A DNA stretch of 24,000 bases from an uncultured delta proteobacterium (GTDB taxonomy: Bacteria; Desulfobacterota; Desulfovibrionia; Desulfovibrionales; Desulfovibrionaceae), in assembly GCA_903843965.1 (NCBI GenBank), contig CAIMRY010000025.1, forward strand, positions 44,622 through 68,621. The letters are read 5' to 3'. Shown piece after piece: positions 7,819 through 23,356 of this stretch. The notes under the pieces are model-generated. The model was given only the letters and a program-made list of their open reading frames with translations, was not told the DNA's origin and ran no database searches. The number at the start of each line of letters is the position of its first letter. The stretch's first letter is position 1. A program made the position numbers and the translations under genes.

Positions 7819-9040
7819 AACGCAAGGCATCCGAGGGCTTAAGCGCAGCTGCGCGCCGGGCCGGGTAGATCGTGGACAGATAGCACAGGGCAAGAGCCGC
7901 AACCCCGATCAGCAGCATATCCAAAAACTCAAGGCGTACAGGTAGATAGTCCACCGGGTAGACATCGCTCGGCAGCTTGATGAACTGGTATTTCTTGAGC
8001 AAAAGCGCCACAGGAAGGCCGATGGCGTAGCCCAGGGCCGTGCCCACCGCGCCGATAAAACTGCCCTGATAGATAAAAATCCGCCGGATGCTCCTCTCGT
8101 CCGCGCCCATGGCCATGAGCACGGCGATGTCCTTGGTCTTCTGCATCACCAGCATCACCAGCATGGTCACGATGCTGAAGGAGCCCACCAGCACGATCAT
8201 GGCCAGGATGATGAACATGGCCGTCTTCTCAAGCTCCAAGGCTGCGAAAAGATTGGCGTTCATCTCCTGCCAGTTGCGCACAAAAACAGGGTAGTCATGC
8301 AGCTTTGCGCGGATATGGTCGCTGACGGTGCCGGCCGCGTACACATCCGCCAGGCGAACCTCCAGCCCTGATACGATATCACCCTTGAATCCAAGGAGAC
8401 TTCTCGCCGCGCCCACGGTCACGTAGCCCAGGGTGGCGTCGTACTCGAACATGCCGGTCTTGAAGATTCCGGCCACGCGGAAGACCTTCACCTTGGGCGT
8501 AAAGCCTACTGCGCTGGGGGTTCCCGTGGGCGAGAGCAGGTTCACCAGCGCCCCCACCTCCAGCCCCAGGCGCTTGGCCATCTCCGCGCCGATGATCACT
8601 CCGGGCAGGTCGTCGCGGTCCTCCAAATCATTGACGCTTCCGGAAACCATGTCCCGGGTGATGCTCAGGACTTGGTCGGCGGTGGCGGGGTCGATGCCGC
8701 GCAGGACCACGCCCTTGACCCCGCCCTTGGCCGAGAGCATGACCTCGGAGTACACAAAGGGCGTGACCCCGCTGACGCCGGGCACCTCCCGGCACAGGTC
8801 CGCCAGCTTCTGGTAGTCGCGGATGCCGCCGGAAAAGGCGCTCACCAGCACGTGGGCGTTGACGCCCAGGATCTTGTCGCGCAGGTCCTTGGTGAACCCG
8901 TTCATGACCCCGATGACCACGATGAGCGCGGCCACGCCGAGGGCCACGCCGCACACGGCGAATAGCGAGATGATGCCGATGAAGGACTGTTTGCGAAGCG
9001 CGAAGATGTAGCGCAGGGCGATGAACAGTTCGAAGTTCAT
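7811..9040 (-). CDS. Lipoprotein-releasing system permease (LolC/LolE family, MacB-FtsX type)
   Basis: 409 aa. Starts [29 protein letters not shown] (typical LolC/E N-terminus), then a large periplasmic loop and a C-terminal FtsX-like 3-TM bundle ending YPARRAAALKPSDALRYE. Its ATG overlaps the lysS stop (ATGA, 9037-9040). Confidence 0.85.
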   Translation of the reverse strand: MNFELFIALRYIFALRKQSFIGIISLFAVCGVALGVAALIVVIGVMNGFTKDLRDKILGVNAHVLVSAFSGGIRDYQKLADLCREVPGVSGVTPFVYSEVMLSAKGGVKGVVLRGIDPATADQVLSITRDMVSGSVNDLEDRDDLPGVIIGAEMAKRLGLEVGALVNLLSPTGTPSAVGFTPKVKVFRVAGIFKTGMFEYDATLGYVTVGAARSLLGFKGDIVSGLEVRLADVYAAGTVSDHIRAKLHDYPVFVRNWQEMNANLFAALELEKTAMFIILAMIVLVGSFSIVTMLVMLVMQKTKDIAVLMAMGADERSIRRIFIYQGSFIGAVGTALGYAIGLPVALLLKKYQFIKLPSDVYPVDYLPVRLEFLDMLLIGVAALALCYLSTIYPARRAAALKPSDALRYE

Positions 9041-10668
9041 GCAGGTCCGGTGGCCGGGCCGGCCGGCCCGGATGAGGTTTGGCCGGAGCTGGTCTCCAGC
9101 CTGAGCAGCGGGAAGAGGATGACCTCGCGGATGGACGGGGAGTCGGTGAGCAGCATGACCAGGCGGTCGATGCCCACGCCCTGCCCGGCAGCCGGAGGCA
9201 TGCCGTACTCCAGCGCGCGCACGTAGTCCTCGTCCATGAAGTGCGCCTCGTCGTCGCCTGCGGCCTTTTCCTGCACCTGGTCCTCGAAGCGGCCGCGCTG
9301 GTCCACGGGGTCGTTCAGCTCGCTGAAGGCGTTGGCCAGCTCGCGGCCCACCACGAACAGCTCAAAGCGGTCGGTGATCTCCGGGTTGTCCTCGTTGCGG
9401 CGGGAGAGCGGAGAGATGTCCGTCGGATAATGATAGATGAAGTGCGGCTGGATGAGCTTGGGCTCCACGAAGATGTCGAAGAGCTTGGCTTGGAGCTTGC
9501 CCAGCTTTTCGCCCTTGACGACCTTCTCGCCGCTCTTCTTCACCAATGCGGCGCAGCGTTCGTAGTCCTTGTAGTCGGCCGGGTCAACGCCGCCGATCTG
9601 CTCCAGCGAGTCGTGGAAGCTTATGCGCGTCCACTTGCCCGGCGTCAGGTCGATCTCCATCTCCTGGTAGGTCACGATGGTGCTGCCGCACACGTCGCGG
9701 GCCACGATGGAGAGCATGTCCTCGGTCAGGTCCATGAGGTCCGTGAAGTCGGCATAGGCCCAGTAGAACTCCAGCATGGTGAACTCGGGGTTGTGCCGGG
9801 TGCTGATGCCTTCGTTGCGGAAATTGCGGTTGATCTCGTAGACCTTTTCGAACCCGCCCACGAGCAGGCGCTTCAGGTACAGCTCGGGCGCGATGCGCAT
9901 GTACAGCTTCATGTCCAGCGCGTTGTGGTGCGTCTCGAAGGGCCGCGCCGTGGCGCCGCCGGGAATGGGCTGCATCATGGGCGTCTCGACCTCAAGGAAG
10001 CCCCTGGCGTCGAGGTAGTTGCGGATGCCGCGCACGATCATGGTGCGCTTGCGGAAGATCTCGCTGGTGCGCGGGGTCACGATGAGGTCCACGTAGCGCT
10101 GGCGGTAGCGGGTCTCCATGTCCTTCAGCCCGTGGTACTTCTCCGGCAGGGGCCGCATGGACTTGGTCACCAGGACCACGGACCTGGCGCGCAGGGTCAG
10201 CTCGCCGGTCTTGGTGCGGAAGAGGTCGCCGCTGATGCCCAGGATGTCGCCGATGTCGTACTTTTTGAAGAGCTGGTAGGCCTCCGCGCCGAGGTCGTCG
10301 CGGGCCACAAAGATCTGCATGGACGCGCTGGAGTCCTGGAGCTTGACAAAGGTGACCTTGCCAAACGAGCGCAGCGAGCGCACGCGCCCGGCCACGGCGA
10401 ACACGCGGCCCACGGCCGCCAGCCCGTCATCGTCCATGTCCGTGTAGGCGGAGACGATGTCGGCCAGGTCCGTGTCCCGGCGGAAGGTGTTGGGGTACAG
10501 GGACACGTTCTCGTCGAGCAGGGCGCAGGCCTTGTCGATGCGGCCCTTGAGCACGTCGTTCAATTCATCGCGCGCGGCCAAGGCGTCCGCCAGGGGCTTG
10601 AAGCGCCCAGCGTGCTTCGACCCGGCGTGGCTGTCTGCCCCGCCGTTGCGTTGTTCGTTGTCGGCCAA
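9037..10668 (-). CDS. lysS: Lysine--tRNA ligase, class II
   Basis: 543 aa. OB-fold anticodon-binding region ([27 protein letters not shown]) and class II motifs ([21 protein letters not shown]; [20 protein letters not shown]; [20 protein letters not shown]). Confidence 0.92.
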
Positions 10669-10912: not shown

Positions 10913-10988
10913 TCCCCGGTAGCTCAATCGGCAGAGCGGGTGGCTGTTAACCACTAGGTTCGCGGTTCAAGTCCGTGCCGGGGAGCCA
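10913..10988 (+). tRNA. tRNA-Asn (anticodon GTT), CCA encoded
   Basis: Hand-folded cloverleaf. Acceptor stem TCCCCGG/CCGGGGA, D stem GCTC/GAGC, anticodon stem GGTGG/CCACT with loop CTGTTAA (anticodon GTT), T stem CGCGG/CCGTG with loop TTCAAGT, discriminator G, then CCA. Confidence 0.9.
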
Positions 10989-10998
10989 AAGAGAGCAA

Positions 10999-11033
10999 GG
11001 GCTCCAGATGACAGTCTGGGGCCCTTTTTCTTT
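10999..11033 (+). terminator. Rho-independent terminator after tRNA-Asn
   Basis: GGGCTCCAGA (10999-11008) pairs with TCTGGGGCCC (11015-11024): 10 bp including one G-U pair, with a 6 nt loop. Followed by TTTTTCTTTG. Confidence 0.65.
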
Positions 11034-11120: not shown

Positions 11121-11294
11121 CTAGGTCTTACGAATTAGCGCCTGCGTGCACCAAGTCGTCTCATTCCCGTAGAGATCATGCTGCGTGGCCGTCGAGACAC
11201 CGCCCAGCGGCTCCCAGCCTTGCTGGAGAAGCCTGTTCACTTCAGCTTCCAGATCCTTAGACGCATCATGCAACAGTTTGTATTCCAAAGCCAT
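11121..11294 (-). CDS. Small DUF1737-like protein (57 aa)
   Basis: MALEYKLLHDASKDLEAEVNRLLQQGWEPLGGVSTATQ... resembles the DUF1737 pattern (small alpha/beta protein with a GWEP-GGV block), identified from memory of the family. The ATG at 11294 is preceded by AAGGAGG with 5 nt spacing, so the longer 65 aa form in the track is unlikely. Confidence 0.5.
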   Translation of the reverse strand: MALEYKLLHDASKDLEAEVNRLLQQGWEPLGGVSTATQHDLYGNETTWCTQALIRKT

Positions 11295-11753: not shown

Positions 11754-12548
11754 ATGGCCGCGAAGAATTCCGTGCTGTCCGCGCTTGATGCTGATCTGTC
11801 GATCCGTGTCCTGAACCAGATTCCCACCCCGGTCATGGCCGTGGACAAAGACTTCAAGATCGTCTTCATGAACGAGGCCGGGTGCACTCTTTTGGGCCTG
11901 CCCCTGGACGAGATCACCCGGTTCAAATGCTCGGAGCTTATGAACTCCCTGCACTGCGGCACGCCGGAATGCCGCATGAATCAGGCCATGGACAACGGAA
12001 TCTGCGGCACTGCGCGCAACGAGGTGAACATCGACGGTCGAGCCGTGCCCATTGCGCCCTTAAAGGATGATGCGGGCAACATCATCGGCGGCGTGGAATA
12101 TGTCATCGACATCACCAGCCGCGTGCGCGACGAGCAAAAGCTGCGCGAGCAGAGCCGCACCATCATGGAGATCTCCACCCCGGCCATCAGCCTGTGGGAG
12201 GGCATCGTGGTGCTGCCCGTGGTCGGCGTGGTGGACTCCATGCGCGCCCAGCAAATGATGAACACCATGCTCGCCAAGATCAAGGAGAGCTCGGCCAAGA
12301 TCATCATCCTGGACATCCAGGGCGTGGCCGCAGTCGATACCGCCGTGGCCAACCACCTGATCAAGATCACCAAGGCCACCAAGCTCATGGGCTGTCGCTG
12401 CCTGATCTCCGGCATCTCCCCGGCTGTGGCCGAGACCCTGGTGCAGCTCGGCATCGACCTGGGCGACGTGGCCACCAACGCCACCCTGAAGGACTCCCTG
12501 GGCGAGGCCTTCGAGCTGCTGCGTTACGAAGTGCGCAAGTCCAAGTAG
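11754..12548 (+). CDS. rsbR: RsbR-like stressosome scaffold/sensor: N-terminal PAS (4-Cys) + C-terminal STAS
   Basis: Start chosen at the ATG at 11754 (GGAGAAAACCC upstream). PAS-like N-terminus (LNQIPTPVMAVDKDFKIVFMNEAGCTLLG...GGVEYVIDIT). The C-terminus (STPAISLWEGIVVLPVVGVVDSMRAQQMM...ILDIQGVAAVDTAVANHLIK...ISGISPAVAETLVQLG) matches the RsbR STAS domain, including both Thr phospho-acceptor contexts. Confidence 0.85.
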   Translation: MAAKNSVLSALDADLSIRVLNQIPTPVMAVDKDFKIVFMNEAGCTLLGLPLDEITRFKCSELMNSLHCGTPECRMNQAMDNGICGTARNEVNIDGRAVPIAPLKDDAGNIIGGVEYVIDITSRVRDEQKLREQSRTIMEISTPAISLWEGIVVLPVVGVVDSMRAQQMMNTMLAKIKESSAKIIILDIQGVAAVDTAVANHLIKITKATKLMGCRCLISGISPAVAETLVQLGIDLGDVATNATLKDSLGEAFELLRYEVRKSK

Positions 12549-12590
12549 CATGGCTGGCAAAAAGGCCTGCTTTTTCGCGGAGCATCGCCC

Positions 12591-13073
12591 ATGATCGACC
12601 AGGCTTTCGCCAGCCATGGCATGCACGTCATCGACGGCGTGCTTGTGGCCCAGGCTCCAGACAGCATTGAGGACGCGTCCCTGCGCCAGTTTCAGTCCGG
12701 GCTGCTCAGCCGGGTGCACGCCACCTCGCCGCGTGGCGTCATCCTCGACGTCTCGCGCGTGCGGCTCCTGGACTCCACCTCCTACGCGCTCTTGGCCGAC
12801 GCGGGCCGCATGGCGGCCATGCTCGGGGCGCGGGTGATCTTCGTGGGCTTCCAGCCCGGCGTGGTCTCGGCCCTGATGGACCTGGACGTGGACGTGGGCG
12901 CCCTGATCACGGCGCGCACCCTGGAGGACGGCATGGAGCTTATACGCCCGGCCCTGCGGGTAATCGAAGAGGACCCGGAGGAACAGGCCTCGGACGATTA
13001 CAAGCCGGAGGACGCCGCTGCAGGGGACGGGCAGTCCCAGACCGAGCCCGGCCAGGAGACCAAGACCCCATGA
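12591..13073 (+). CDS. rsbS: RsbS-like single STAS-domain stressosome protein
   Basis: 160 aa. VILDVSRVRLLDSTSYALLADAGRMAAMLGARVIFVGFQPGVVSALMDL matches the RsbS core, including the Ser in the L-D-S context (B. subtilis S59 equivalent). Acidic low-complexity tail. Its stop overlaps the rsbT start (ATGA). Confidence 0.8.
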   Translation: MIDQAFASHGMHVIDGVLVAQAPDSIEDASLRQFQSGLLSRVHATSPRGVILDVSRVRLLDSTSYALLADAGRMAAMLGARVIFVGFQPGVVSALMDLDVDVGALITARTLEDGMELIRPALRVIEEDPEEQASDDYKPEDAAAGDGQSQTEPGQETKTP

Positions 13074-13489
13074 CCCCGGCGCGCATCAGCGAAGAAGTAC
13101 ACATCGACCTCGCCCTGCCCTCGGACAACGCCGGGGCCATCTGCACGGCCAAGCGGCTGGCCGGGCAGGCGGGCTTCGACGAGGCCGGGCAGAGCCTCAT
13201 CGCCACAGCGGTGTCCGAGCTGGCCACCAACATCCTGCGCTATGGCGGCGGAGGCGAGGTGGTGCTGCGCCTGATCCATGAGCCGGGACGCAGCGGCATG
13301 GAGATCCTGGCCGAGGACCACGGCCCCGGCATCCGCAACATCGAGAGGGCCATGCAGGACCACTTCAGCACCGGCAAGAGCCTGGGCCTGGGCCTGCCCG
13401 GCGTCAAAAGGCTCATGGACGAGTTCTTCATCAACTCCAAGCCCGGCGTGGGCACCCTGTGCATCGCCCGCAAGTGGAGGCGGCTCTAG
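13070..13489 (+). CDS. rsbT: RsbT-like GHKL serine/threonine kinase (switch protein)
   Basis: 139 aa. N box AVSELATNILRYG and G boxes EDHGPGI and GKSLGLGLPGVKRLMDEF. Size and position (after rsbR and rsbS) are as in rsbRST modules. Confidence 0.85.
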   Translation: MTPARISEEVHIDLALPSDNAGAICTAKRLAGQAGFDEAGQSLIATAVSELATNILRYGGGGEVVLRLIHEPGRSGMEILAEDHGPGIRNIERAMQDHFSTGKSLGLGLPGVKRLMDEFFINSKPGVGTLCIARKWRRL

Positions 13490-14077
13490 ATGGGTACCGT
13501 CGACTGTCACCTGGTCCTGAAGCCCCTGACCGGGCTCTTGGAGGAATGCGGCGACACGGGAGTGGTCGTCGCGGGCGAGGCGTCCTGCTTCGCGGCCCTG
13601 GTTGACGTGCTGGGCCACGGACCAGAGGCGCGCCAGTCGGCCATCGTGGCCGAAACCTTTCTGCCGGGCTGCGCCGGGGCGGACCTGACCGTCTCGCTCA
13701 AGGGCTTGCACGAAAAGCTGCGGCGTGGGCGCGGGGCCGTGGCCACCCTGCTGGAGCTTGATCTCGCCAGCGGTGAGTTGCTGGTGGCGGGAGTCGGGAA
13801 CATCACCACCCGCGTCTTCGGCGTCGAGCATACCCGCGTGCTCCCGCGCGACGGCATCGTCGGTTATTCCATGAGCACCCCGCGCGTGCAGCGTCTGCGC
13901 CTGCGCATCGGCGATGTGGTCCTGCTCTATTCCGACGGCATCCGCGAGTCCTTTGAGCTGCACGACTGCCCCGGCCTGCTTGCGGGCAGCGCCAAGGAGA
14001 TCGCCGAGCGCGTCATGAAGGCCTTCCGCAAACAGGACGACGACGCCTCGTGCCTGGTGCTGAGGTACACGGCATGA
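13490..14077 (+). CDS. rsbX: RsbX-like small PP2C/SpoIIE-family feedback phosphatase
   Basis: 195 aa with PP2C-type motifs CGDTGVV, LVDVLGHGPEA, LLVAGVGNI, VLLYSDGI and QDDDASCLVLRY. The ATG follows the rsbT TAG with no gap. Confidence 0.75.
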   Translation: MGTVDCHLVLKPLTGLLEECGDTGVVVAGEASCFAALVDVLGHGPEARQSAIVAETFLPGCAGADLTVSLKGLHEKLRRGRGAVATLLELDLASGELLVAGVGNITTRVFGVEHTRVLPRDGIVGYSMSTPRVQRLRLRIGDVVLLYSDGIRESFELHDCPGLLAGSAKEIAERVMKAFRKQDDDASCLVLRYTA

Positions 14078-16107
14078 TCCCCCTGGGCGAATTTCTGGTC
14101 GAGGACGAGGTGACCTTCAACGAGTCGCGGCGAAAGGTCCTGCGGCTGGCCCAGGCCCTGGGCTTTGACGAGATCGGGGCCACCCGGCTGGCTATGGCCT
14201 ATTCCGAGCTTTGCCGCCTGGGCGTGGACCGGCCCGGCGGCGTGCGGACGCACCTCGGCCTTGAGGAGCAGCCTGGCGGCCTGGCCTTGGGCGTCGACTT
14301 CGCCTTCAGCGCCAATACCGGCGCGCCGCTTGTAGCGGACGCATTCTTTCGTTCCTTCACGGCCATTCCCGGCGCAGCCTGGTCCTACCGGGGCCTGTTG
14401 CCCCTGCCGGACCACTGCTTCCGCCTCGACGAGGAGCTGCTGGAGAGCCTGCGCAGTCGTCTGGCCCATCCCTCGCGCGAGGAGCTGCTGCGCGACCTGA
14501 GGAACAAGAACGCCGCGCTGGAACAGGAGATCACCAAGCGCATGCAGAGCGAGGAGGAGATCAAGCGCCAGCGCACCCTGCTGGACACCCTGGTCAACTC
14601 TCTGCCGCAGCTCATCTACTCCAAGGACACAAGCGGCACGTACCAGATCGTCAACAACGCCCTGTGCGAGATGCTGGGCCTGCCCGTCTGGGAGGTCCTG
14701 GGCAAGAACGCCAGCGAGCTCTTCCGCCCGGAAACGGCGGAGCGCATCAACCGCGCCGACCACAGGACCTTCACGGAGAAGCATCTCACCACCGAGGTGG
14801 ACTGGCGCACCTACCCTGATGGCCGCAAGGCGATCTTCGACATCATCCGTGTGCCCGTGCTGGACGAGCAGGGCGAGGCCACGGGCCTGGTCGGAGCCTT
14901 CACCGACATCACCGAGCGCATGCGCATGGAAGAGGCTGTGCGCGAAAGCGAGGTCAAGTACCGCGAGCTGGTGGAGAACGCCAACAGCATCATCCTCAAG
15001 CTGGACATGGACGGACGCATCACCTTCTTCAACGAGTTCGCCCAGAAGTTCTTCGGCTTTACGCCAGAGGAGATCCTGGGCCAGAGCATCGTCGGCACCA
15101 TCGTGCCCGAGAGCGAGTCCACAGGCCGCGACCTTGCGGCCTTCATCCAGGATCTGGTCAGGAACCCTGGCCAGCACGCCCGCAACGAGAACGAAAACGT
15201 CACCAAGGACGGCGAGCGCGTCTGGGTGGGCTGGACCAATCAGGCCCTGCGCGACGACGCCACCGGCCAAGGCCTGGGCGTGCTCTGTGTGGGCTCGGAC
15301 GTTACGGCCCAGAAGATCGCCCAGCTGCAGCGCGACGAGGCCCTGGAGCTCATCTCCGGAAGCATCCGCTACGCCAGCCGCATCCAGCAGGCCGTGCTGC
15401 CCGCGCCGGAGTTCCTGGCCGCGCTCTTCGCCGAGCATTTCGTGCTCTGGCAGCCACGCGACGTGGTCGGCGGCGACATCTTCTGGAGTGTGCCCTGGGG
15501 CCAAGGCGGCCTGTTCGTTTTGGGCGACTGCACCGGCCACAGCGTGCCCGGGGCCTTCATGACGCTGATCACCACCGGGGCCCTGGCCAAGGCCCTGCGC
15601 GACGTGGAGCCCGGCGACGTGGCCGGGCTGGTCAGCCACACCCACCAATTGGTGCAGACGGGCCTGGGCCAGCATGTGGACACCGGCGGCTCGGACGACG
15701 GCATGGAGCTGGGCGTCTGCTACATCCCGCAGGATAGGGCCAACCTGCGCTTCTGCGGGGCGCGCTTCAGTCTGTTCCTGCTGGAGAACGGCGAGGTGGC
15801 CGAGCACAAGGGCGACCGCAGAGGCATCGGCTACCGGGGCATCTCCCTGGACTTCCCCTTCACCGCTCAGGACTTCGCCCTCGCCCCTGGCCAGCGCTTC
15901 TTCCTGACCAGCGACGGGCTGCTGGACCAGATCGGCGGGGAGCGCAGGCGCAGCTATGGCAAGAAACGCTTTATGGAGCTGCTTGTCGGGCTCTGCGGCC
16001 AGCCCCTTGCGACGCACCCGGAGCGCATCATGGAGAGCCTGCGCGCCTATCAGGGCCAGGAGAAGCGCCGCGACGACGTGTCCGTGGCGGGCTTTCGGGT
16101 GGTCTGA
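14074..16107 (+). CDS. Multidomain PP2C (SpoIIE-type) phosphatase: degenerate GHKL-like N-domain, coiled coil, 2 PAS, PP2C (RsbU/SiaA analogue)
   Basis: Start placed at the ATG at 14074, overlapping the rsbX stop (ATGA). Two PAS domains (LIYSKDTSGTYQIVNNALCEMLG...; IILKLDMDGRITFFNEFAQKFFG...VGSDVT). PP2C motifs ASRIQQAVLP, VGGDIFW, LGDCTGHSVPGAFM, DDGMELGVC, FFLTSDGLLDQ and RRDDVSVAGFRV. Confidence 0.85.
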   Translation: MIPLGEFLVEDEVTFNESRRKVLRLAQALGFDEIGATRLAMAYSELCRLGVDRPGGVRTHLGLEEQPGGLALGVDFAFSANTGAPLVADAFFRSFTAIPGAAWSYRGLLPLPDHCFRLDEELLESLRSRLAHPSREELLRDLRNKNAALEQEITKRMQSEEEIKRQRTLLDTLVNSLPQLIYSKDTSGTYQIVNNALCEMLGLPVWEVLGKNASELFRPETAERINRADHRTFTEKHLTTEVDWRTYPDGRKAIFDIIRVPVLDEQGEATGLVGAFTDITERMRMEEAVRESEVKYRELVENANSIILKLDMDGRITFFNEFAQKFFGFTPEEILGQSIVGTIVPESESTGRDLAAFIQDLVRNPGQHARNENENVTKDGERVWVGWTNQALRDDATGQGLGVLCVGSDVTAQKIAQLQRDEALELISGSIRYASRIQQAVLPAPEFLAALFAEHFVLWQPRDVVGGDIFWSVPWGQGGLFVLGDCTGHSVPGAFMTLITTGALAKALRDVEPGDVAGLVSHTHQLVQTGLGQHVDTGGSDDGMELGVCYIPQDRANLRFCGARFSLFLLENGEVAEHKGDRRGIGYRGISLDFPFTAQDFALAPGQRFFLTSDGLLDQIGGERRRSYGKKRFMELLVGLCGQPLATHPERIMESLRAYQGQEKRRDDVSVAGFRVV

Positions 16108-16411
16108 CCCGGGTTGGGGCCAACAGGATGAATTTTCTGGATTGGCTCTCAGGCTGTGTTTCGTGCACAAAGAGAATGATGCGGACCAGTGGAGACCTAA
16201 GCTGGCACGCTCAAGACCCGATCCGGCGGCGCTCCCCAAAGAACGCTTCCGGCGGTCTGGTCGAACCCCCAGGCTGGCCGAAGTCTGGCCGCAGTCGGGC
16301 CGGAATCGGGCCGGAACCTCGCCAGGCCAACCTGGCTCCGGCCTTTGAACGAGGGCTCCTGGACAGCGTGTCCGAAATCTGTCAGCCCCCCCTGTGGAAT
16401 CGGAGGAACAC

Positions 16412-16957
16412 ATGCTCGCCAATGAAATGTTCGACCTGCGCAACACCCTGGACCAGCAGGGCATCACCTTCTGTTACTCCGGCTACATGACCGAGGCCAT
16501 ATTGTTTGGCATCGGCAACGCCATCAAGACCCACATGGAGATCGGCGACGCCGACGCCAAGCTGGCCAAGGGCGTCTTCGCCGTGTTCGTGGAGCAGGTG
16601 CAAAACGTCATCCGCTACTCCGCCGAGAAGGTCGGCAAGGAGGACGCCTCCGAGTTGCGCTACGGCATCCTGACCGTGGGCACCATGGGCGAAAAGCCCT
16701 TTGTGGCCTGCGGCAACATGATCGAGATCAAGGACGCCGACCGCCTGCGGGACTCGCTCACGCACATCAAGGGCCTGGACAGGGACGGCCTCAAGGCGCT
16801 GTGGAAAGAGACCCTGCGCGGGGAGGTCCCGGAAGGCAGCAAGGGCGCCGGCGTGGGCTTCATCGACATCGCCCGGCATGCACGCGGCGGCATCGATTTC
16901 GACTTCCGCACGGTTGACGATGCGTACGTCTTCTTCACTCTCAAAGCACTTCTATAG
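16412..16957 (+). CDS. SiaB-like small GHKL-type protein kinase
   Basis: 181 aa from the ATG at 16412 (GGAGG 5 nt upstream; the track's GTG at 16394 is less likely). Pattern ITFCYSGYMTEAIL...VFVEQVQNVIRYS (N-box-like) ...SKGAGVGFIDIAR (G-box-like). Size and position immediately upstream of a DUF1987 gene fit the SiaB family. Family assignment is from memory, not a search. Confidence 0.65.
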   Translation: MLANEMFDLRNTLDQQGITFCYSGYMTEAILFGIGNAIKTHMEIGDADAKLAKGVFAVFVEQVQNVIRYSAEKVGKEDASELRYGILTVGTMGEKPFVACGNMIEIKDADRLRDSLTHIKGLDRDGLKALWKETLRGEVPEGSKGAGVGFIDIARHARGGIDFDFRTVDDAYVFFTLKALL

Positions 16958-16970
16958 CAGGGACACACCC

Positions 16971-17351
16971 ATGAACACACTCCACATGCCAGCCACCGAG
17001 CGCACCCCTGAACTCCTGTTCGATTTCGCGGCCAACACCTTTTCGCTCAAGGGCGAGTCCTATCCGGAAAACATCGCCGAGTTCTACAGCAGTCCCGTGG
17101 GCCAGCTCAAGGAGCACCTGACCGCCCAGAAGGGCCAGAAGATCACCTTCCAGTTCGAGCTGCCCTACTTCAACAGCTCCAGCGCCAAGATCATCCTTGG
17201 CCTGTTCTCCATGCTGGAGCAGGCGGCCGTGGACGGCAACAAGGTGCTCATCACCTGGACCTGCGAGGAAGGCGACGACATGCAGGAGATGGGCGAGGAG
17301 TTCGCCGAGGACCTCGACGCCGCCAAGTTCGAACTGAAGTTCCTGGGCTAG
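16971..17351 (+). CDS. SiaC-like DUF1987 regulatory phosphoprotein
   Basis: 126 aa from the ATG at 16971. TPELLFDFAANTFSLKGESYPENIAEFYSPV...FQFELPYFNSSSAKIILGLF matches the DUF1987 pattern (TP-v-fd, G-S-PEN, YfN(T/S)SS-k). Confidence 0.75.
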   Translation: MNTLHMPATERTPELLFDFAANTFSLKGESYPENIAEFYSSPVGQLKEHLTAQKGQKITFQFELPYFNSSSAKIILGLFSMLEQAAVDGNKVLITWTCEEGDDMQEMGEEFAEDLDAAKFELKFLG

Positions 17352-17353
17352 CC

Positions 17354-18394
17354 ATGGGCTACGAGCTGTTCAACGAGGAAGCAGAGATCGTCGAAAAGGG
17401 CGAGTTGCTCCTGGAGCAGGGCGCCTTTGCCGACCCCGAAGCGGCCGCGCGCTTTGCCGAGATGCTCAAGCACTACAAAAAGCTGCTGAAGAACCTCCAG
17501 CGGCTCATGCGCCTGTCCGACCGCAACGAAGAGAAGCTCAACGCCCTGGCCCACGCCATGGATGAGAAGAACAAGCTCCTGGAGGCGCTTTCGGCCAACC
17601 TGTCCAAGTACCTGTCCCCGCAGATCGTGCATTCGCTGCTGACCGGGGAAAAGGGCACAGAACTCATCACCCAGCGCAAGAAGCTCACCGTCTTCTTCAG
17701 CGACATCAAGGACTTCACCAAGACCACCGAGAACATGCAGCCCGAGGACCTCTCGTATCTGCTGAACAGCTATTTCACGGAGATGTCCAAGATCGCTCTG
17801 CATTATGGGGCCACCATCGACAAGTTCATCGGCGACGCCATGCTCATGTTCTTCGGCGACCCCGAGACCAAGGGCGTGAAAGAGGACGCCGAGGCCTGCG
17901 TGCGCATGGCCGTGGCCATGCAGCGCCGCATGAAGAAGCTGCAAAGCACCTGGCGCTTCCGCGGCTACCAGAACCCGTTCCACATGCGCATCGGCATCAA
18001 TACCGGGTACTGCAACGTGGGCAACTTCGGCAGCGAAGACCGCATGGATTACACCATCATCGGCGGCGAGGTGAACCTGGCCGCGCGCCTGGAGGTCCAA
18101 GCCGAGCCCGACGGCATCCTCATCTCCTCGGACACCTTCTCCCTGGTGCAGGACATCGTGGAGGCCGAAGAACGCCCAAAGCTGACAGCCAAGGGCATTG
18201 AGCGCGAAATCATCCCCTACGCCATCACCAACATCTACGATGAGGAGCTGGGCTGTCCGGACCTCATCCGCTCGGAATTCAAGGGGCTGCGCATCATCGC
18301 GGACCTGGAGAAGGTCTGCGCCGCAGACAAGGGAGCCATCATCGAAACCATGGAGCAGCTTCTCGCGCGGTTGCGCGAGGAGCCTGCAGGCTGA
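17354..18394 (+). CDS. Class III adenylate cyclase (IIIb-like) with N-terminal coiled-coil stalk
   Basis: 346 aa. Catalytic core: LTVFFSDIKDFT (metal Asp117), IDKFIGDAMLMFFG (Lys157, Asp161), RIGINTGYCNVGNFG, DYTIIGGEVNLAARLE (Thr234, Asn241, Arg245). Residues 1 to about 105 are helical heptad-like, with no TM segment or recognisable sensor domain. Confidence 0.88.
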   Translation: MGYELFNEEAEIVEKGELLLEQGAFADPEAAARFAEMLKHYKKLLKNLQRLMRLSDRNEEKLNALAHAMDEKNKLLEALSANLSKYLSPQIVHSLLTGEKGTELITQRKKLTVFFSDIKDFTKTTENMQPEDLSYLLNSYFTEMSKIALHYGATIDKFIGDAMLMFFGDPETKGVKEDAEACVRMAVAMQRRMKKLQSTWRFRGYQNPFHMRIGINTGYCNVGNFGSEDRMDYTIIGGEVNLAARLEVQAEPDGILISSDTFSLVQDIVEAEERPKLTAKGIEREIIPYAITNIYDEELGCPDLIRSEFKGLRIIADLEKVCAADKGAIIETMEQLLARLREEPAG

Positions 18395-18419
18395 TCCGCA
18401 GGGCGAACAGGGGGTGCGC

Positions 18420-18827
18420 GTGGAGACGATCATCTGGACAGAAGCGCTCAGCGTAGGCGTGGAGCGCATCGACAGGGAGCATCAGACCCTGGTGGTCATG
18501 CTGAACGACCTGGGCCAGGTCATTGGCTCCGGACAGGGGCAGCAGTCCGTGGCGCAGGTCGTGTGCCGGATGCGTCAGTATGCCCAGGAGCATTTCGCAA
18601 CCGAGGAGGAGGCCATGACCGCCACCCGGTATTCTGGGCGCACCAGCCACATGGCCGAGCACGACGCCTTCATCGAAAAGGTCCTGGAAGTTGAGGACGC
18701 CTTGAGCCAGGGCGAGCCGGTTGCCGCTGGGGACATCTGGAAATACCTCCGGCTCTGGCTCACTGAGCATATCCAGGGCCCGGACAAGGTGCTCGGCGAG
18801 CATCTCTGCGCCTGTGGCAAGGGATAA
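18420..18827 (+). CDS. Bacteriohemerythrin (single domain)
   Basis: Start placed at the GTG at 18420 (product METIIWTEALSVGVERIDREHQ...); the track ORF begins much earlier inside the cyclase gene. All di-iron ligand motifs are present: DREH, EHFATEE, HMAEHDAF, EHIQGPD. Confidence 0.85.
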   Translation: METIIWTEALSVGVERIDREHQTLVVMLNDLGQVIGSGQGQQSVAQVVCRMRQYAQEHFATEEEAMTATRYSGRTSHMAEHDAFIEKVLEVEDALSQGEPVAAGDIWKYLRLWLTEHIQGPDKVLGEHLCACGKG

Positions 18828-18877
18828 GTAACCGACCGCGCCTGGTTGGTTGAATGGAATCGACAACGGGGGGGGAC

Positions 18878-19285
18878 ATGGAAACAGTTTTGTGGGCTTC
18901 TGAATTGGAGATTGGTGTCAAGAGCATTGACGAGCAGCACAGGCGCCTGGTGGGCATGTTGAACACCCTGGGCAAGGCCATTGGCGAGAACCACGGCAAG
19001 GACGCCATCATGGGCATCGTGGAGGAGATGAAGCACTACGCGGTGTATCATTTCAAGACCGAAGAAGAGGCCATGGAGGCCAAGGACTACCAAAAACGTT
19101 CTCAGCACAAGCAGGAGCACGACGCCTTCATCGAACAGGTGCTCGACGCGGCCGAGGCCCTGGAGTCCGGGGGCAATATCACCCCAGAGCAAGTCTGGGC
19201 TTTCCTGTACAAATGGCTTGTGGAGCACATCCTGGAGTCGGACAAGGCCATGGGCACTCACCTGGTCGCCCAGGGAATGCAGTAG
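18878..19285 (+). CDS. Bacteriohemerythrin (single domain), paralogue of the preceding gene
   Basis: Start placed at the ATG at 18878 (METVLWASELEIGVKSIDEQH), just after a G8 run (18868-18875) that could act as the RBS. Ligand motifs DEQH, YHFKTEE, HKQEHDAF and EHILESD. Confidence 0.88.
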   Translation: METVLWASELEIGVKSIDEQHRRLVGMLNTLGKAIGENHGKDAIMGIVEEMKHYAVYHFKTEEEAMEAKDYQKRSQHKQEHDAFIEQVLDAAEALESGGNITPEQVWAFLYKWLVEHILESDKAMGTHLVAQGMQ

Positions 19286-19684
19286 GTCGATCCGGTTCCG
19301 CAGTCTGCTCATCCTCTGGCGGGGCAGGCGCGGCGGATTCAGTTTTTCGAAAGCGCTGCCTGAGTTCTTGGCGAGCAGCAAGCACGCCTGGGCAAATTGC
19401 TGCCCCCCTCCCTCTTTTGCGCTGCAAGTCCGCACTAGGCATGTCCCAAAAACATATTCTACTGTCAAAGCCAGGGTGAAAGTGTACCGGCAGGGCCGAG
19501 TTATAGTGTACCGCCTTGGGGCAATGGATAAAGGCATGCTGCACGCTTGGCCATGTTGGTGGGCAGCGGCGCCCACCGCGACAATAATGGAGGCTACCAT
19601 GTCCTTGCCATCTTCTGTCTACTTCAGGCCGAAGGCTGCCGCCATGCTCGCGGGCTGGCCCAAGGCAGGGAGGGCACGCGCGCT

Positions 19685-19921
19685 ATGACTACCCGCGCAC
19701 TCCCGTCCGGTCCGGGCGGGTCCACAGAAGCCCCTGAAGTCGAAGTCCTTCACGTAACCACCGCCCCTCGTCCCACCCTCCGCCTACACCTCTGGCTTGA
19801 AAACAAGGGCGAGCTGTTCTTCGGCATTGGCCGGGCGCGCCGCCGCAGGGCGGGACCGGCGGCCAAGGCGCCCGTGGACAGAAAGCGCATTGTCAAAACC
19901 GCGTCTCTTGAGTATGCATGA
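19685..19921 (+). pseudogene. Possible remnant of a ModE-N-terminal-like (wHTH) regulator gene
   Basis: 78-codon ORF from the ATG at 19685. LRLHLWLENKGELFFGIGRA resembles the conserved N-terminal start of small ModE-like wHTH regulators, as I recall them. The expected HTH (GS...AA..LGMSYR.AW) is missing; the ORF continues as Arg/Ala-rich sequence and stops. Weak call. Confidence 0.25.
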
Positions 19922-19966
19922 ATGAGCCAGGGATACCGTCCTGCACACCAAAGCCCAGCGAGGACC

Positions 19967-20413
19967 ATGAAACTCTCCGCCAAGGCGCGCTACGCCGTGC
20001 GCATCCTGCTTGATCTTGCCCGGCACCTGGACGAGGGCCCGGTGCGCACCACGGATATTTCCGGCCGCACCGGCGTGTCCGCACGCTTCATCGAGCAGAT
20101 CCTGAAGCCCCTGAAAAAGGCCGCCCTGGTGACCAGTACGCGCGGCGCCACCGGCGGCTACACCCTTGTCGTCCGGCCCGAGGACATCAGCCTGGCGCGC
20201 GTCATCCGCATCATCGAGGGCAGCCTGTGCCTCACGCAATGCTGCGAAAACCCCTCGGTGTGCTCCCGCTCCTCGCATTGCCGCAGCCACCGGGCCTGGG
20301 TGCGCGTCTCCCAGGTCCTGGATGCCGAGCTGGAAAGCATCAGCATCAAGGACCTCCAGGACGACACGCTGTCCTGCACCGGCCCTGACTGCGCCTGCTG
20401 CCCCACGCCCTAG
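19967..20413 (+). CDS. Rrf2-family transcriptional regulator, putative Fe-S binding
   Basis: 148 aa from the ATG at 19967. MKLSAKARYAVRILLDLARH...ISGRTGVSARFIEQILKPLKKAALVTSTRGATGGYTL is a canonical Rrf2 wHTH. Cys88, Cys92, Cys93, Cys99, Cys105 and His108, plus a Cys-rich tail SCTGPDCACCPTP. Confidence 0.85.
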   Translation: MKLSAKARYAVRILLDLARHLDEGPVRTTDISGRTGVSARFIEQILKPLKKAALVTSTRGATGGYTLVVRPEDISLARVIRIIEGSLCLTQCCENPSVCSRSSHCRSHRAWVRVSQVLDAELESISIKDLQDDTLSCTGPDCACCPTP

Positions 20414-20561
20414 CCCCGCCCCGCCCCGCTTCGCAAGCGCCCCGCGCCGCCCAATCCCGCTGCCGCGCGGGAGCATTCCCATTCCCCCAGGCCTTGAGGG
20501 ATTGCCCAACCACATGTTTTAGAACGTAAAAAATATTTTGTGCTTTTATTCACGAATACCC

Positions 20562-20588
20562 TTGACTGCGTAGGCCTATTCTTTTAAT
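20562..20588 (+). promoter_or_regulatory. Putative sigma70-type promoter in the AT-rich island upstream of the second Rrf2 gene
   Basis: TTGACT (20562-20567), a 15 nt spacer, then TTTAAT (20583-20588; 5/6 to TATAAT). The spacer is shorter than optimal. It lies in the most AT-rich stretch of the window. Confidence 0.3.
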
Positions 20589-20699
20589 TCCGAGTCATAT
20601 GATCCTGATTGAATTCATCGCGTTTAGATTTATCGCTATTGACCAGGTACGAGTTGCGCGGATTTCGACCAGACTGGACCGACAAACAACGGGACAGAC

Positions 20700-21290
20700 A
20701 TGAAGCCAACCTCCAAAACCTGCCACGCCGTCAGAATCCTGCTGGAGCTTGCGCACCACGGGGACGCCCACCCCATGCGCGCCTCGGAGCTCTCCGTCAT
20801 CATCGGCATCTCAACCAAGCTCATGGAGAAGATCGTCCGCCCCCTCAAGGTCGCGGGCATGCTCAAGAGCCTGCGCGGGGCCAGCGGCGGCTACGTCCTC
20901 GACCGCGACCCCAAGGCCATCACCCTGGCCGACATCCTGACCGCCATGGAAGGCGCGGTGTTCAAGCCGCAGTGCTGCGAGGCCGACAGCGAGTGCCGGC
21001 TCCTCGACAGCTGTCCCACCGGCGCCATCTGGAGCGACATCGCCCTGCAGATGGAACAGCGCTTCCGCGCCATCACCCTGGCCGAGCTCATGACCGACGC
21101 GCGCGAGGACTGCCCCTCGCGCGCGGCCCGTGCGGCCCACGCCTCCAGATCCGCTGACGAACCCGACGGCACAAAGCCCTGGACCGACGCATGCGCTGGC
21201 CCGGGCAGAAGCAGAATCTCCCGCAGGAGGAAACCAGGGGCCGGACAAACCGCCCCGCGCATGCCGGGGCGCCCGCGCCCTGCTCGATGA
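20700..21290 (+). CDS. Rrf2-family transcriptional regulator, putative Fe-S binding, with a basic low-complexity C-terminal tail
   Basis: 196 aa. MKPTSKTCHAVRILLELAHH...LSVIIGISTKLMEKIVRPLKVAGMLKSLRGASGGYVL is an Rrf2 wHTH. Cys92, Cys93, Cys99 and Cys105 are at the same positions as in the upstream paralogue. The last 55 or so residues are Arg/Pro/Ala-rich. Confidence 0.8.
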   Translation: MKPTSKTCHAVRILLELAHHGDAHPMRASELSVIIGISTKLMEKIVRPLKVAGMLKSLRGASGGYVLDRDPKAITLADILTAMEGAVFKPQCCEADSECRLLDSCPTGAIWSDIALQMEQRFRAITLAELMTDAREDCPSRAARAAHASRSADEPDGTKPWTDACAGPGRSRISRRRKPGAGQTAPRMPGRPRPAR

Positions 21291-21331
21291 TGGCCGGCTA
21301 GAATTCCACACACCACAAAAAGGGGAAGATC

Positions 21332-22570
21332 ATGAAAAAATTGCTCATTCTCGGGTCCGGAGCAGGTGGCACCATCGTGGCCGCAAAAATGGCCAAGTCA
21401 CTTGGCGAGGACTGGCAGATCACGGTCATCGACCGCGATTGGAAGCACCACTACCAGGCCGGGTGGCTCTTCGTCCCCTTCGGCGTGTACTCCATGGCCG
21501 ACTGCGTGAAGCCCAAAACCGACTTCATCCCCGAGGGCGTCAGCTTCGTGCAGGACACCATCGTGAACATCAACCCCGAGAAGAAGCGGGTCAAGACCGA
21601 GAAGGGCCAGTACGACTACGACTGGCTGGTCATCGGCACCGGCTGCCGCATCATGCCCGACGAGATCGAGGGCATGATGGACGACTGGGGCGGCAACATC
21701 CACAACTTCTACACCCCGGATGGAGCCCAGAACCTCTACAAGAAGCTCAAGTACTACAAGAAGGGCAAGGTGGTCCTGAACATCGCCGAAATGCCCATCA
21801 AGTGCCCGGTGGCCCCGCTGGAGTTCGTGTACCTGCTCGACTGGTTCTTCACCGTCAACGGCGTGCGCAAGAACATTGAGATCGAGCTGGTGACCCCGCT
21901 CACCGGCGCCTTCACCAAGCCCGTGGCGGCCAGCATTCTGGGCCGGATCTGCGAGCAGAAGAACATCGCCATCACGCCCAACTTTGAGATCGCGGGCGTC
22001 AATGTGGGCGAGAAGACCATCGAGAGCGTCAAGGGCGACAAGGTCAACTACGACCTGCTCGTGGCCATCCCGCCCAATTTCGGCTCCCAGATCATCATCG
22101 ACTCCGAGCTCGGCGACGCCATGGGCTATGTGGACACCGACAAGCATACGCTGAAGGCCAAAAACATCCCCAACTGCTACGTCATCGGCGACGCCACCAA
22201 CTGCCCCACCTCCAAGGCCGGCAGCGTGGCCCACTACCAGGCCGACATCGTCTGCGACAACCTCCTGCGCGAGATCGACGGCGAGGACCCCCGGCCCGAG
22301 TTTGACGGCCACTCCACCTGCTTCATCGTCTCCGGCTACGAGCAGGCCTTTTTGATCGACTTCAACTACTCTGTGGAGCCGCTGGAGGGCAAATACCCCT
22401 TCCCCGGCCTGGGCCCCTTCTCGCTCCTGGGCGAAAGCCACTTCAACTACTGGGGCAAGATGATGTTCAAGTGGGTCTACTTCAATCTGATGCTCAAGGG
22501 CCACGAACTGCCGCTGGAGTCCCAGATGTTCATGGCCGGGAAGATGCGCCACCACCTGGCTGGCGCCTAG
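21332..22570 (+). CDS. Sulfide:quinone oxidoreductase-like FAD-dependent oxidoreductase
   Basis: 412 aa. Rossmann start MKKLLILGSGAGGTIVA, then MPIKCPVAPLEF (Cys158, resembling the PIKC-GAP motif of SQR-family enzymes), a second dinucleotide motif VIGDATNCPTSKAGSVAHYQA, Cys330 in GHSTCFIV, and an amphipathic C-terminus. RBS AAAGGGGAAG upstream. Confidence 0.8.
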   Translation: MKKLLILGSGAGGTIVAAKMAKSLGEDWQITVIDRDWKHHYQAGWLFVPFGVYSMADCVKPKTDFIPEGVSFVQDTIVNINPEKKRVKTEKGQYDYDWLVIGTGCRIMPDEIEGMMDDWGGNIHNFYTPDGAQNLYKKLKYYKKGKVVLNIAEMPIKCPVAPLEFVYLLDWFFTVNGVRKNIEIELVTPLTGAFTKPVAASILGRICEQKNIAITPNFEIAGVNVGEKTIESVKGDKVNYDLLVAIPPNFGSQIIIDSELGDAMGYVDTDKHTLKAKNIPNCYVIGDATNCPTSKAGSVAHYQADIVCDNLLREIDGEDPRPEFDGHSTCFIVSGYEQAFLIDFNYSVEPLEGKYPFPGLGPFSLLGESHFNYWGKMMFKWVYFNLMLKGHELPLESQMFMAGKMRHHLAGA

Positions 22571-22586
22571 GACGCGGGGGGGCACC

Positions 22587-23234
22587 ATGCAGGACGAACG
22601 TGTTCTCGAACGCATTGAAGGGATGGAGCAGCAGCTCAAGTACCTGGTCGACGCCTCCAAGGGTTGGCAGGAACTGAAGCACGACCTGACCCCCATCATG
22701 CACGACGCCTTCAAGACCCTGATGAAAGAGTTCGGCGACGTCGAAGCAGGCTTCCAGCTGGAAGACATCTTCGCGCTGCTGAAGCGCTTTCTGCGCAGCA
22801 TCAAGAACATCACCTACATGCTGGAGCAGATGGAGAACATCATCGACCTCTGGAAGACCATCGAGCCGCTGCTGCACTCGGCCGTGCCCAAGGGCGTGGC
22901 CTTTCTGGACAACATGGAGCAGCAGGGCGTGTTCCGCATGTACAAGGCCATGGTCCAGGTCCGCGGCAAGATGGCCCGGGCCTACACGCCGGAGGACATC
23001 GAGGTCATGGGCGACGGCTTCGTGTCCATGCTCGGGCTGATCAAGAAGCTCAGCACCCCGCAGGCGCGGGAGATGCTGGAAAAGCTGGCCGACATGATGG
23101 GCGACGTGGACCTGAAGGAGTGCAAGGAATGCGGGCCCATGGGCCTGGTGGCCGGGATGAGCGGCAAGGAGGCCCGCAAGGGGCTGGGCGTCATGCTGGA
23201 ATTCACCAAGAGCCTGGGCAAGCTGAAGGACTAG
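22587..23234 (+). CDS. DUF1641 domain protein
   Basis: 215 aa helical protein. The repeated architecture and C-terminal block (GPMGLVAGMSGKEARKGLGVMLEFTKSLG) resemble DUF1641 proteins that I recall as frequent neighbours of SQR/NDH-2-like flavoproteins. Starts 17 nt after the flavoprotein stop. Confidence 0.65.
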   Translation: MQDERVLERIEGMEQQLKYLVDASKGWQELKHDLTPIMHDAFKTLMKEFGDVEAGFQLEDIFALLKRFLRSIKNITYMLEQMENIIDLWKTIEPLLHSAVPKGVAFLDNMEQQGVFRMYKAMVQVRGKMARAYTPEDIEVMGDGFVSMLGLIKKLSTPQAREMLEKLADMMGDVDLKECKECGPMGLVAGMSGKEARKGLGVMLEFTKSLGKLKD

Positions 23235-23356
23235 GGCGGACAGCTCCGGGGCGACCGGCACCGCCCCGGAACGCGCGGCCCGGCGGCATTTGCCACGGCC
23301 GGACCGGGCCGCGCCCCATATACAAACACGCCGCATTCCTGCGGCAGGAGGCAGCC

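Follow-up and report, generated by a model that had tools for sequence, protein, structure and literature searches.

How does a stressosome pass on its signal where no sigma factor is at hand? The question is raised by a locus of ten genes, all on the + strand, at positions 11754-19285 of a 24-kb stretch of DNA (24,000 nucleotides of contig CAIMRY010000025.1, called the window here) from an uncultured delta proteobacterium. This bacterium is closely related to Desulfocurvus (Desulfovibrionaceae); its RsbT shares 94% identity with the RsbT of a Desulfocurvus metagenome-assembled genome (MAG), and the DNA of the locus is about 84% identical. Stressosomes are widespread, and outside the Firmicutes their outputs and the route by which RsbT reaches these outputs are poorly understood. 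Judging from domain content, gene order and related loci, the ten genes probably encode an RSTX-type stressosome with a three-tier output cascade which ends in the synthesis of cyclic AMP (cAMP).

The products of the ten co-directional genes are RsbR-, RsbS-, RsbT- and RsbX-like proteins, a phosphatase, a SiaB-like kinase, a SiaC-like phosphoprotein, a class III adenylate cyclase and two hemerythrins. An earlier note on this DNA had named these genes and domains, and the Pfam assignments of all ten products bear it out; within 11754-14077, the profiles assigned PAS plus STAS, STAS, HATPase_c_2 and SpoIIE/PP2C domains. The gene boundaries are identical in public gene calls on contigs which carry an identical cyclase. 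The close junctions described in the note can be read directly from the sequence: the rsbS stop overlaps the rsbT start (ATGA, 13070-13073), the TAG of rsbT is followed at once by the ATG of rsbX (13487-13492, ATG at 13490), and the rsbX stop overlaps the start of the phosphatase gene (ATGA, 14074-14077). The phosphatase gene and the SiaB-like gene are 304 bp apart (16108-16411), and a GGAGG ribosome-binding site precedes the ATG of the latter at 16412. The gap between the SiaB-like and SiaC-like genes is 13 bp and that between the SiaC-like gene and the cyclase gene 2 bp. No terminator-like site was found in the internal gaps of the ten-gene locus. The tight or overlapping junctions together with this absence are operon signals, which we count as support for a joint wiring of the locus. 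The statement that no RsbV, RsbW or sigma factor is encoded within the 24 kb also holds, as there is no further STAS or GHKL open reading frame and the other genes belong to unrelated families. Similarly, no additional PP2C, SiaB or SiaC paralog is present in the window.

The stressosome genes

The RsbR-like co-antagonist (11754-12548, +) consists of an N-terminal PAS domain (Pfam PAS_4) with a Cys/His motif and a C-terminal STAS domain. This STAS domain is closest to RsbR of the Vibrio vulnificus stressosome (VvRsbR, 7O0I_B, E value 3.5e-48) and also matches the RsbR of 6QCM (E 1e-25). Both acceptor threonines predicted previously align with those of the two structures: the VDT threonine is T196 (codon 12339-12341) and the AET threonine is T228 (12435-12437), the latter being variable across orthologs. 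The RsbS-like scaffold (12591-13073, +) is a single STAS domain which matches the RsbS chains 6QCM_A (E 9e-17), 7O0I_a and 2VY9 in the PDB. Its acceptor serine is retained as well; S62 in the sequence LLDS (codon 12774-12776) falls into the phospho-Ser column of the solved RsbS chains and corresponds to the Ser replaced by Ala in the mutant chain of 9O4R. The RsbT-like switch kinase of the GHKL family (13070-13489, +; HATPase_c_2, E 6.5e-10) aligns with SpoIIAB and has intact N and G boxes (SELATN, DHGPG, GLGLPG), as had been read before. RsbX (13490-14077, +; SpoIIE, E 1.2e-12), a putative feedback phosphatase, is a single-domain PP2C protein of 195 aa with SpoIIE only, encoded directly after rsbT; it is 23% identical to the PP2C domain of the neighbouring phosphatase and matched no NCBIfam model. 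By every available sequence criterion, this is a complete stressosome module. Using RsbT as an anchor, R-S-T-X loci were found in 29 genomes.

Several features of these four proteins were noted in passing. Residues 59-73 of the RsbR PAS domain (window 11754-12150) form the pattern C59-x7-H67-C68-x4-C73 (KCSELMNSLHCGTPEC), invariant in 8 orthologs from several lineages; this could be a metal-binding, Fe-S or redox-sensing site which defines the input signal. Near position 12050, after GRAVPI, the RsbR of the window lacks four PAS residues (EYTA) which are present in 7/7 aligned orthologs. Public gene calls show the same 264-aa product, so the missing residues reflect natural variation and not an error. 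RsbS extends about 40 residues past its STAS domain in an acidic low-complexity C-terminal tail (residues ~122-160; 12955-13070); the solved RsbS chains it matched comprise only 115-123 aa, and its orthologs are similarly long (165-167 aa). A second RsbT paralog lies between rsbT and rsbX in many RSTX loci outside the Desulfovibrionales (L015, L017-L019, L021-L022, L026-L032); in most of these, the gene after rsbX also begins with an RsbT-like or adaptor domain.

The phosphatase and its N-terminal adaptor

The gene which follows rsbX encodes a phosphatase of 677 aa. The earlier note described it as PAS-PAS-PP2C only and overlooked its 135-residue N-terminus, which is the key linking element of the locus. 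The protein comprises an N-terminal adaptor domain (14074-14478, +), two PAS domains (14593-15309, +; Pfam PAS and PAS_4 at residues 174-282 and 296-412) and a catalytic PP2C domain (15328-16107, +). The PAS domains, the number of which varies among orthologs, would give additional sensory input.

The only PDB sequence match of the PP2C domain is SiaA of Pseudomonas aeruginosa (6K4E, E 1.5e-43), and the domain matches the C-terminal 255 positions (403-657) of the NCBIfam SiaA model NF038263 with an E value of 1.2e-60. The cut-off of the full-length SiaA equivalog is not reached (206 versus 700 bits) because the N-terminal two-thirds of the protein differ. In a neighbour-joining tree without bootstrap support, the stressosome-linked PP2C domains from seven loci formed one clade nested among SiaA-like PP2C domains whose genes adjoin SiaB/SiaC genes, and RsbX was a distant outgroup. 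On these comparisons, the PP2C domain is of the SiaA type and not of the RsbU or RsbX type.

Residues 1-135 gave no Pfam match, with no RsbU_N at E <= 0.01, and no meaningful PDB sequence match. They are 42% identical over 45 aa to the RsbT of the window (E 2e-5), in the region of the N box. The domain has no G boxes, and the Mg-binding Asn of the N box is replaced. Its AlphaFold (AF2) model, built from a 27-sequence alignment, has a predicted local distance difference test (pLDDT) score of 93, and a Foldseek search of the PDB gave UsfX, RsbW (TM-score 0.77) and SpoIIAB as top matches. A conserved helical linker (PSREELL..L..KN) follows the domain. The similarity to RsbT and the predicted anti-sigma-kinase fold together identify the adaptor, at the level of a model, as a degenerate RsbT/RsbW-like pseudo-kinase domain. 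A reading of this N-terminus as RsbU_N was rejected, as there is no Pfam match and the modelled fold is alpha/beta and GHKL-like instead. The analogy to the Bacillus paradigm, in which RsbT activates RsbU, is only loose because a domain other than RsbU_N provides the coupling.

Among 1.84 billion representatives searched exhaustively, only 51 relatives of the adaptor were found, and the domain was N-terminal in 51/51. Among 46 scanned members, it was fused to HisKA (22), SpoIIE (11), Guanylate_cyc (2), GGDEF (1) and HD_5 (1). A word-indexed protein search with the adaptor alignment gave only 10 matches, mostly fragments, and metagenomes were scanned with an 8-sequence alignment. In every examined locus with upstream DNA present, the adaptor opens the gene directly after rsbX: in the Desulfovibrionales (L006-L010), in bog-metagenome loci, in Pseudodesulfovibrio sediminis, in the metagenome loci L039-L047 and in Desulfovibrio inopinatus. 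The adaptor profile also matches after rsbX in loci of Mariprofundus, Gemmatimonadetes, Polyangiales, gammaproteobacteria, Actinoplanes and others, where the outputs are hybrid histidine kinases or GGDEF enzymes. Altogether, the 29 RsbT-anchored loci yielded 16 full-length and 8 partial matches. The equivalent N-terminal domain in Bradyrhizobium and in a Verrucomicrobiales MAG is a bona fide Pfam HATPase_c_2 domain (E ~1e-19), which suggests that the adaptor is an RsbT paralog that was fused to outputs and later degenerated. In the literature that we searched, no RsbT-like adaptor domain is described for proteins downstream of stressosomes.

Both P. sediminis and bog metagenomes encode, directly after rsbRSTX, a fusion of the adaptor with the cyclase subfamily of the window (E 3e-106 and 4e-112). 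Such a fusion is a Rosetta-stone link between the stressosome output and this cyclase. In one bog-metagenome locus (L036, 1405-2888), a V4R-domain protein and a 313-aa HAMP-like-STAS protein replace the plain RsbS; the order continues with rsbT, rsbX and the adaptor-cyclase fusion.

The SiaB-SiaC-cyclase triad and its link to the stressosome

The gene after the 304-bp gap encodes a SiaB-family protein kinase (DUF6272; 16412-16957, +; E 1e-39). It scores 183 bits against the NCBIfam model SiaB_fam_kinase (NF038262, cut-off 85), remains below the strict SiaB equivalog (101 versus 225 bits), and matches the SiaB chain 6KKO_A with an E value of 1e-19. The next gene (16971-17351, +) encodes a SiaC-family phosphoprotein (DUF1987; Pfam SiaC, E 2.7e-37) which matches the SiaC chain 6KKO_C (E 1.3e-15) and does not reach the NCBIfam equivalog (77 versus 150 bits). 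At the position of SiaC Thr68 it has Ser69 (N68-S69-S70; codon 17175-17177), and this serine with its motif YFNSSS is conserved in all cyclase-linked SiaC orthologs. In P. aeruginosa SiaC, residues N67, T68 and S69 form the interface with the stalk of SiaD, and phosphorylation of T68 blocks the binding (PMC8457831).

The third gene of the triad (17354-18394, +) encodes a class III cyclase (Pfam Guanylate_cyc) and no GGDEF domain. Class III motifs carry a metal-binding Asp pair, an ATP-selecting Lys/Asp pair (in KFIGDA and MDYT) and an Asn/Arg pair. The enzyme has all four motifs, FFSDI at residue 114, KFIGDA at 157, MDYT at 231 and EVNLAARLE at 239, and the catalytic residues thus appear intact by sequence. 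The CyaB-like catalytic domain (17663-18229, +) matches the solved domain of P. aeruginosa CyaB (3R5G) with an E value of 1e-66. The family of this 342-aa cyclase is widespread (54-63% identity). Genes for SiaB, SiaC and such a cyclase occur together without a stressosome in Magnetospira sp. QH-2, Terasakiella sp. SH-1 and Pseudodesulfovibrio, so that SiaB-SiaC-cyclase can be regarded as a conserved triad. Ahead of the triad, Terasakiella and Pseudodesulfovibrio encode a giant SBP_bac_3/PAS sensor which ends in a SiaA-type PP2C domain.

The catalytic domain is preceded by an N-terminal helical module of about 85 residues (17354-17608, +), a candidate SiaC-receiver stalk. This extension is conserved only in SiaC-linked cyclases; paralogs have the adaptor domain, PAS or HAMP instead. 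The same module opens GAF-HD_5 enzymes encoded after SiaC in D. inopinatus, L041/L042 and Magnetospira (phmmer, E 1e-11 to 1e-4). The AF2 prediction places helices at residues 4-21 and 28-84, i.e. a helical hairpin with a 57-residue helix leading into the catalytic domain, a modelled geometry which resembles the SiaD stalk.

Further variants of these enzymes were observed. The GAF-HD_5 phosphohydrolases after SiaC have about 690 aa (L002 7927-9990, Magnetospira sp. QH-2; L049 13007-15079; L041 4199-6274). The GAF-HD_5 gene of Magnetospira lies between the SiaC and cyclase genes, and one SiaC may therefore control both enzymes. A group of cyclases of about 550 aa (P0011-P0019; PF20970, one also with HAMP, one from Humidesulfovibrio) is 78-87% identical to the cyclase of the window over its residues ~60-346 and differs from it at the N-terminus. 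Such a pattern suggests that input modules were exchanged recently on a single catalytic core.

The last two genes of the locus encode bacteriohemerythrins, both confirmed by Pfam Hemerythrin and by the NCBIfam model NF033749 (bact_hemeryth; 116 and 127 bits, cut-off 84). Their presence had been noted correctly, whereas their starts needed correction: hemerythrin 1 starts with GTG at 18420 (18420-18827, +), and hemerythrin 2 more likely starts at 18878 (18878-19285, +) than with the ATG at 18854. The two co-oriented genes probably tie the system to O2, nitric oxide (NO) or iron status. Hemerythrin genes also lie beside stressosome or SiaB-SiaC-cyclase modules elsewhere (L008 8048-8422, L004 1117-1500, L003 13345-13680); such recurrence in other Desulfovibrionales suggests the same tie.

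The link between the two halves of the locus is supported by gene order, fusions and homology. D. inopinatus has the order rsbR-S-T-X, adaptor-PAS-PAS-PP2C, SiaB, SiaC and GAF-HD_5, i.e. the eight-gene order of the window with a different end enzyme, and its phosphatase and SiaB genes are separated by only 38 bp. In the metagenome contigs L040-L042, the SiaB-SiaC-GAF-HD_5 genes are located upstream of rsbRSTX and the phosphatase gene; the linkage therefore survives rearrangement. The stressosome, the triad and the hemerythrins are kept together in the window and in its closest relatives, L006 and L007. The wiring put forward in the earlier note, from the stressosome through the phosphatase and SiaB/SiaC to the cyclase, thus gains comparative support from the SiaA-type PP2C domain, the position of the adaptor, the fusions and the recurrent gene order.

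The proposed cascade would proceed as follows. The PAS domain of RsbR would sense the signal, and RsbT would phosphorylate Ser62 of RsbS and Thr196 and Thr228 of RsbR and leave the complex. This step follows the paradigm of Bacillus, Listeria and Vibrio, and the acceptor residues are present. Free RsbT would then engage the pseudo-kinase adaptor and, via the helical (coiled-coil) linker and the PAS pair, switch on the SiaA-type PP2C domain. The identity of the adaptor and its strict position after rsbX are observed here, with RsbT as the presumed binding partner; the linker mechanism shown for RsbT-RsbU is an analogue of such activation (PMC12143880). By homology to SiaA/B/C of P. aeruginosa, the PP2C domain would dephosphorylate Ser69 of the SiaC-like protein and so oppose the SiaB-family kinase. 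Unphosphorylated SiaC would bind the 85-residue module of the cyclase, whose role in docking is suggested by its sharing between two effector types, and change the activity of the enzyme; activation, as SiaC activates SiaD, is most likely and would raise cAMP. RsbX would finally reset the stressosome.

Several observations weigh against this cascade. The putative acceptor residue is a Ser, in place of the Thr demonstrated in SiaC, and the module of the cyclase has no sequence similarity to the SiaD stalk, with only chance coiled-coil matches in the rest of the PDB. No interaction between VvRsbT and VvD1 was detectable in Vibrio according to Heinz 2022 (PMC9237108), so that direct docking of RsbT is unproven outside RsbU_N systems. 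The 304-bp gap could hold an internal promoter. The synteny with L006/L007 detected by blastn breaks at this gap, and these relatives carry an 851-aa protein with two SBP_bac_3 domains and PP2C and a second SiaC (YFNSPS) between the halves (L006 5426-8438; L007 about 7536-9738), unrelated in sequence to the spacer of the window; the triad there has a SiaA-like input of its own. L010 has a stressosome-phosphatase module with no SiaB/SiaC within 6 kb downstream, and most SiaB-SiaC-cyclase triads have no stressosome.

The separation of the halves by 304 bp, the dedicated phosphatase and SiaC paralog beside the triad in L006/L007, the arrangement in L010 and the giant SBP/PAS-PP2C sensors which serve triads elsewhere would all fit two independent and merely adjacent modules, the phosphatase having its substrate elsewhere and the triad being driven by another SiaA-like phosphatase encoded elsewhere. 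We consider such independence quite improbable: the SiaA-type PP2C domain groups with the other stressosome-linked ones, including that of D. inopinatus, L040-L042 show the linkage again with the genes rearranged, other genomes have the adaptor joined directly to this cyclase subfamily, and the 24 kb encode no further PP2C, STAS or SiaC-like substrate. The window may have arisen by a loss, after which only the stressosome phosphatase gave local input; alternatively, the relatives may have acquired the second input. The gap was also considered as a deletion scar; no remnant of the SBP_bac_3-PP2C or second SiaC genes of L006 was detected in it. Scans of the gap for sigma-70-like, sigma-54-like and terminator-like sites, which are weak tools, found none.

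Two further alternatives keep the wiring and change one of its contacts. The adaptor might dock on the STAS core of RsbS/RsbR like RsbT itself and be released or activated once RsbT phosphorylates this core, with no binding of free RsbT. The fold of the adaptor is that of STAS-binding kinases (the pairs RsbW-RsbV, SpoIIAB-SpoIIAA and UsfX-RsfB), it aligns with the N-box region of RsbT, its equivalent in Bradyrhizobium and Verrucomicrobiales is a genuine RsbT paralog of the HATPase_c_2 type, and the Vibrio result of Heinz 2022 mentioned above points the same way. Nevertheless, the established precedent is the activation of RsbU and MtG by free RsbT. A heterodimer of RsbT and the pseudo-kinase is equally plausible, since RsbW and SpoIIAB are dimers, and we regard docking on the core as a less likely but serious variant. 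SiaC might also inhibit the cyclase, or the product might be other than cAMP, in which case stress would lower the messenger or alter another one. Whether SiaC activates or inhibits its effector has been established for SiaD only, and the pairing of SiaC with GAF-HD_5 phosphohydrolases, in Magnetospira with both enzymes, makes an opposite regulation of synthesis and breakdown conceivable. This is unlikely, as N68-S69-S70 corresponds to the interface through which SiaC activates SiaD, and the cyclase core matches CyaB and keeps the ATP-selecting motifs.

Surroundings, known systems and significance

Both flanks appear unrelated to the locus. The minus-strand genes upstream, which we take from their translations to be lpxA, fabZ, lpxD, skp, bamA, lolD, lolE and lysS, form a housekeeping flank; the bamA-, lolE- and lysS-like products were confirmed by Pfam. 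The 1.1-kb region between lysS and rsbR contains a tRNA-Asn gene (GTT; 10913-10988) followed by a strong terminator-like hairpin with a 13-bp stem (10997-11026). Between the tRNA gene and rsbR, a 57-aa open reading frame on the - strand (11121-11294), also present in public annotations, matches DUF1737 (E 5.7e-6). Downstream, a gene-free gap of 636 bp (19286-19921) separates the hemerythrin genes from those at 19922-23710, which encode two Rrf2-family regulators, an SQR-like Pyr_redox_2 flavoprotein, a DUF1641 protein and a stand-alone receiver (REC) domain. On longer public contigs, histidine kinases come next.

The locus shares with the stressosome systems of Bacillus subtilis and Listeria monocytogenes an RsbR with both threonines, the serine of RsbS, a GHKL kinase RsbT and a PP2C protein RsbX, and in both the output starts with a PP2C phosphatase, after which comes a partner switch of kinase and phosphoprotein. 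In contrast to these systems (RsbU, RsbV/RsbW and sigma-B), the genes of the window have the RSTX order with rsbX directly after rsbT, the phosphatase carries an RsbT-like pseudo-kinase domain instead of RsbU_N and a SiaA-type PP2C domain, the switch is SiaB/SiaC and not RsbW/RsbV, and the end point is a cyclase and not a sigma factor. The RSTX order is the widespread form outside the Bacillales, according to Heinz 2022 (PMC9237108). In V. vulnificus and V. brasiliensis (Heinz 2022, PMC9237108; Jia 2016, PMC4976288), rsbRSTX is likewise directly followed by a non-sigma output. The sensor in Vibrio is a globin, whereas that of the window is a PAS domain with the Cys/His motif, and the output is a histidine kinase with a GGDEF regulator instead of PP2C, SiaB/SiaC and a cyclase.

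A second-messenger cyclase under stressosome control is also known from Moorella thermoacetica (MtR/MtS/MtT/MtX-MtG; Quin 2012, as cited in PMC7647112 and PMC12143880). There, by the same accounts, MtT acts directly on a GGDEF enzyme with RsbU_N, whereas the window has two intervening phospho-switch tiers, another adaptor fold and a class III adenylate cyclase. The SiaABCD system of P. aeruginosa (Chen 2020/2021, PMC8457831; Poh 2020, PMC7647112) shares the SiaA-type PP2C, the SiaB-family kinase, the SiaC-family phosphoprotein with its N-(T/S)-S interface motif, and an effector gene immediately downstream which encodes an N-terminal helical stalk. It differs in the input of the phosphatase, which in the window consists of the stressosome adaptor and PAS domains, in the acceptor (Thr68 versus Ser69) and in the effector, the GGDEF enzyme SiaD versus a CyaB-like adenylate cyclase; moreover, the proteins of the window score below the NCBIfam equivalog cut-offs for SiaA, SiaB and SiaC. 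The cyclase has all the catalytic motifs of P. aeruginosa CyaB; its N-terminus is the soluble 85-residue helical module of SiaC-linked enzymes, and 3R5G comprises the catalytic domain only.

Stressosomes with non-sigma outputs (Pané-Farré 2005, as reported by a citing paper), stressosome control of a diguanylate cyclase and the SiaABCD switch are thus already known. The novelty claimed in the earlier note was consistent with our full-text literature searches, which found no paper that connects a stressosome with DUF1987/SiaC, nor one that connects SiaB/SiaC with an adenylate cyclase. Heinz 2022 (PMC9237108) distinguishes eleven downstream architecture types; in its available text, the domain abbreviations point to no cyclase or DUF1987 output, and the single mention of 'adenylate cyclase' does not point to a cyclase output either. 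All parts of the locus come from known families; the novelty lies, as far as we searched, in their wiring and in the two connector modules.

On the evidence from sequence comparison, this is the first case in the searched literature in which SiaB/SiaC-type partner switching would stand under a stressosome, and the first in which it would act on a class III adenylate cyclase and not on a diguanylate cyclase; the SiaC mechanism would thereby extend beyond cyclic di-GMP (c-di-GMP). Cultured strains with testable versions are D. inopinatus (phosphatase-SiaB/SiaC) and P. sediminis (direct cyclase fusion). A more general modular design, to which we give slightly less than even credence, would combine two elements: the pseudo-kinase adaptor would couple RSTX stressosomes of many phyla to outputs such as histidine kinases, GGDEF enzymes, PP2C phosphatases and cyclases, and the 85-residue module would be a portable SiaC-receiver. 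If so, this module would place cAMP synthesis by a CyaB-like cyclase, or a GAF-HD_5 phosphohydrolase, under the control of SiaB/SiaC. Most downstream proteins of Gram-negative stressosomes have no RsbU_N, as stated by Heinz 2022 (PMC9237108), which raises the question of how stressosomes signal to downstream proteins without this domain. The pseudo-kinase domain is a candidate for the missing, or universal, adaptor of stressosomes and, if it acts in this way, would answer that question.

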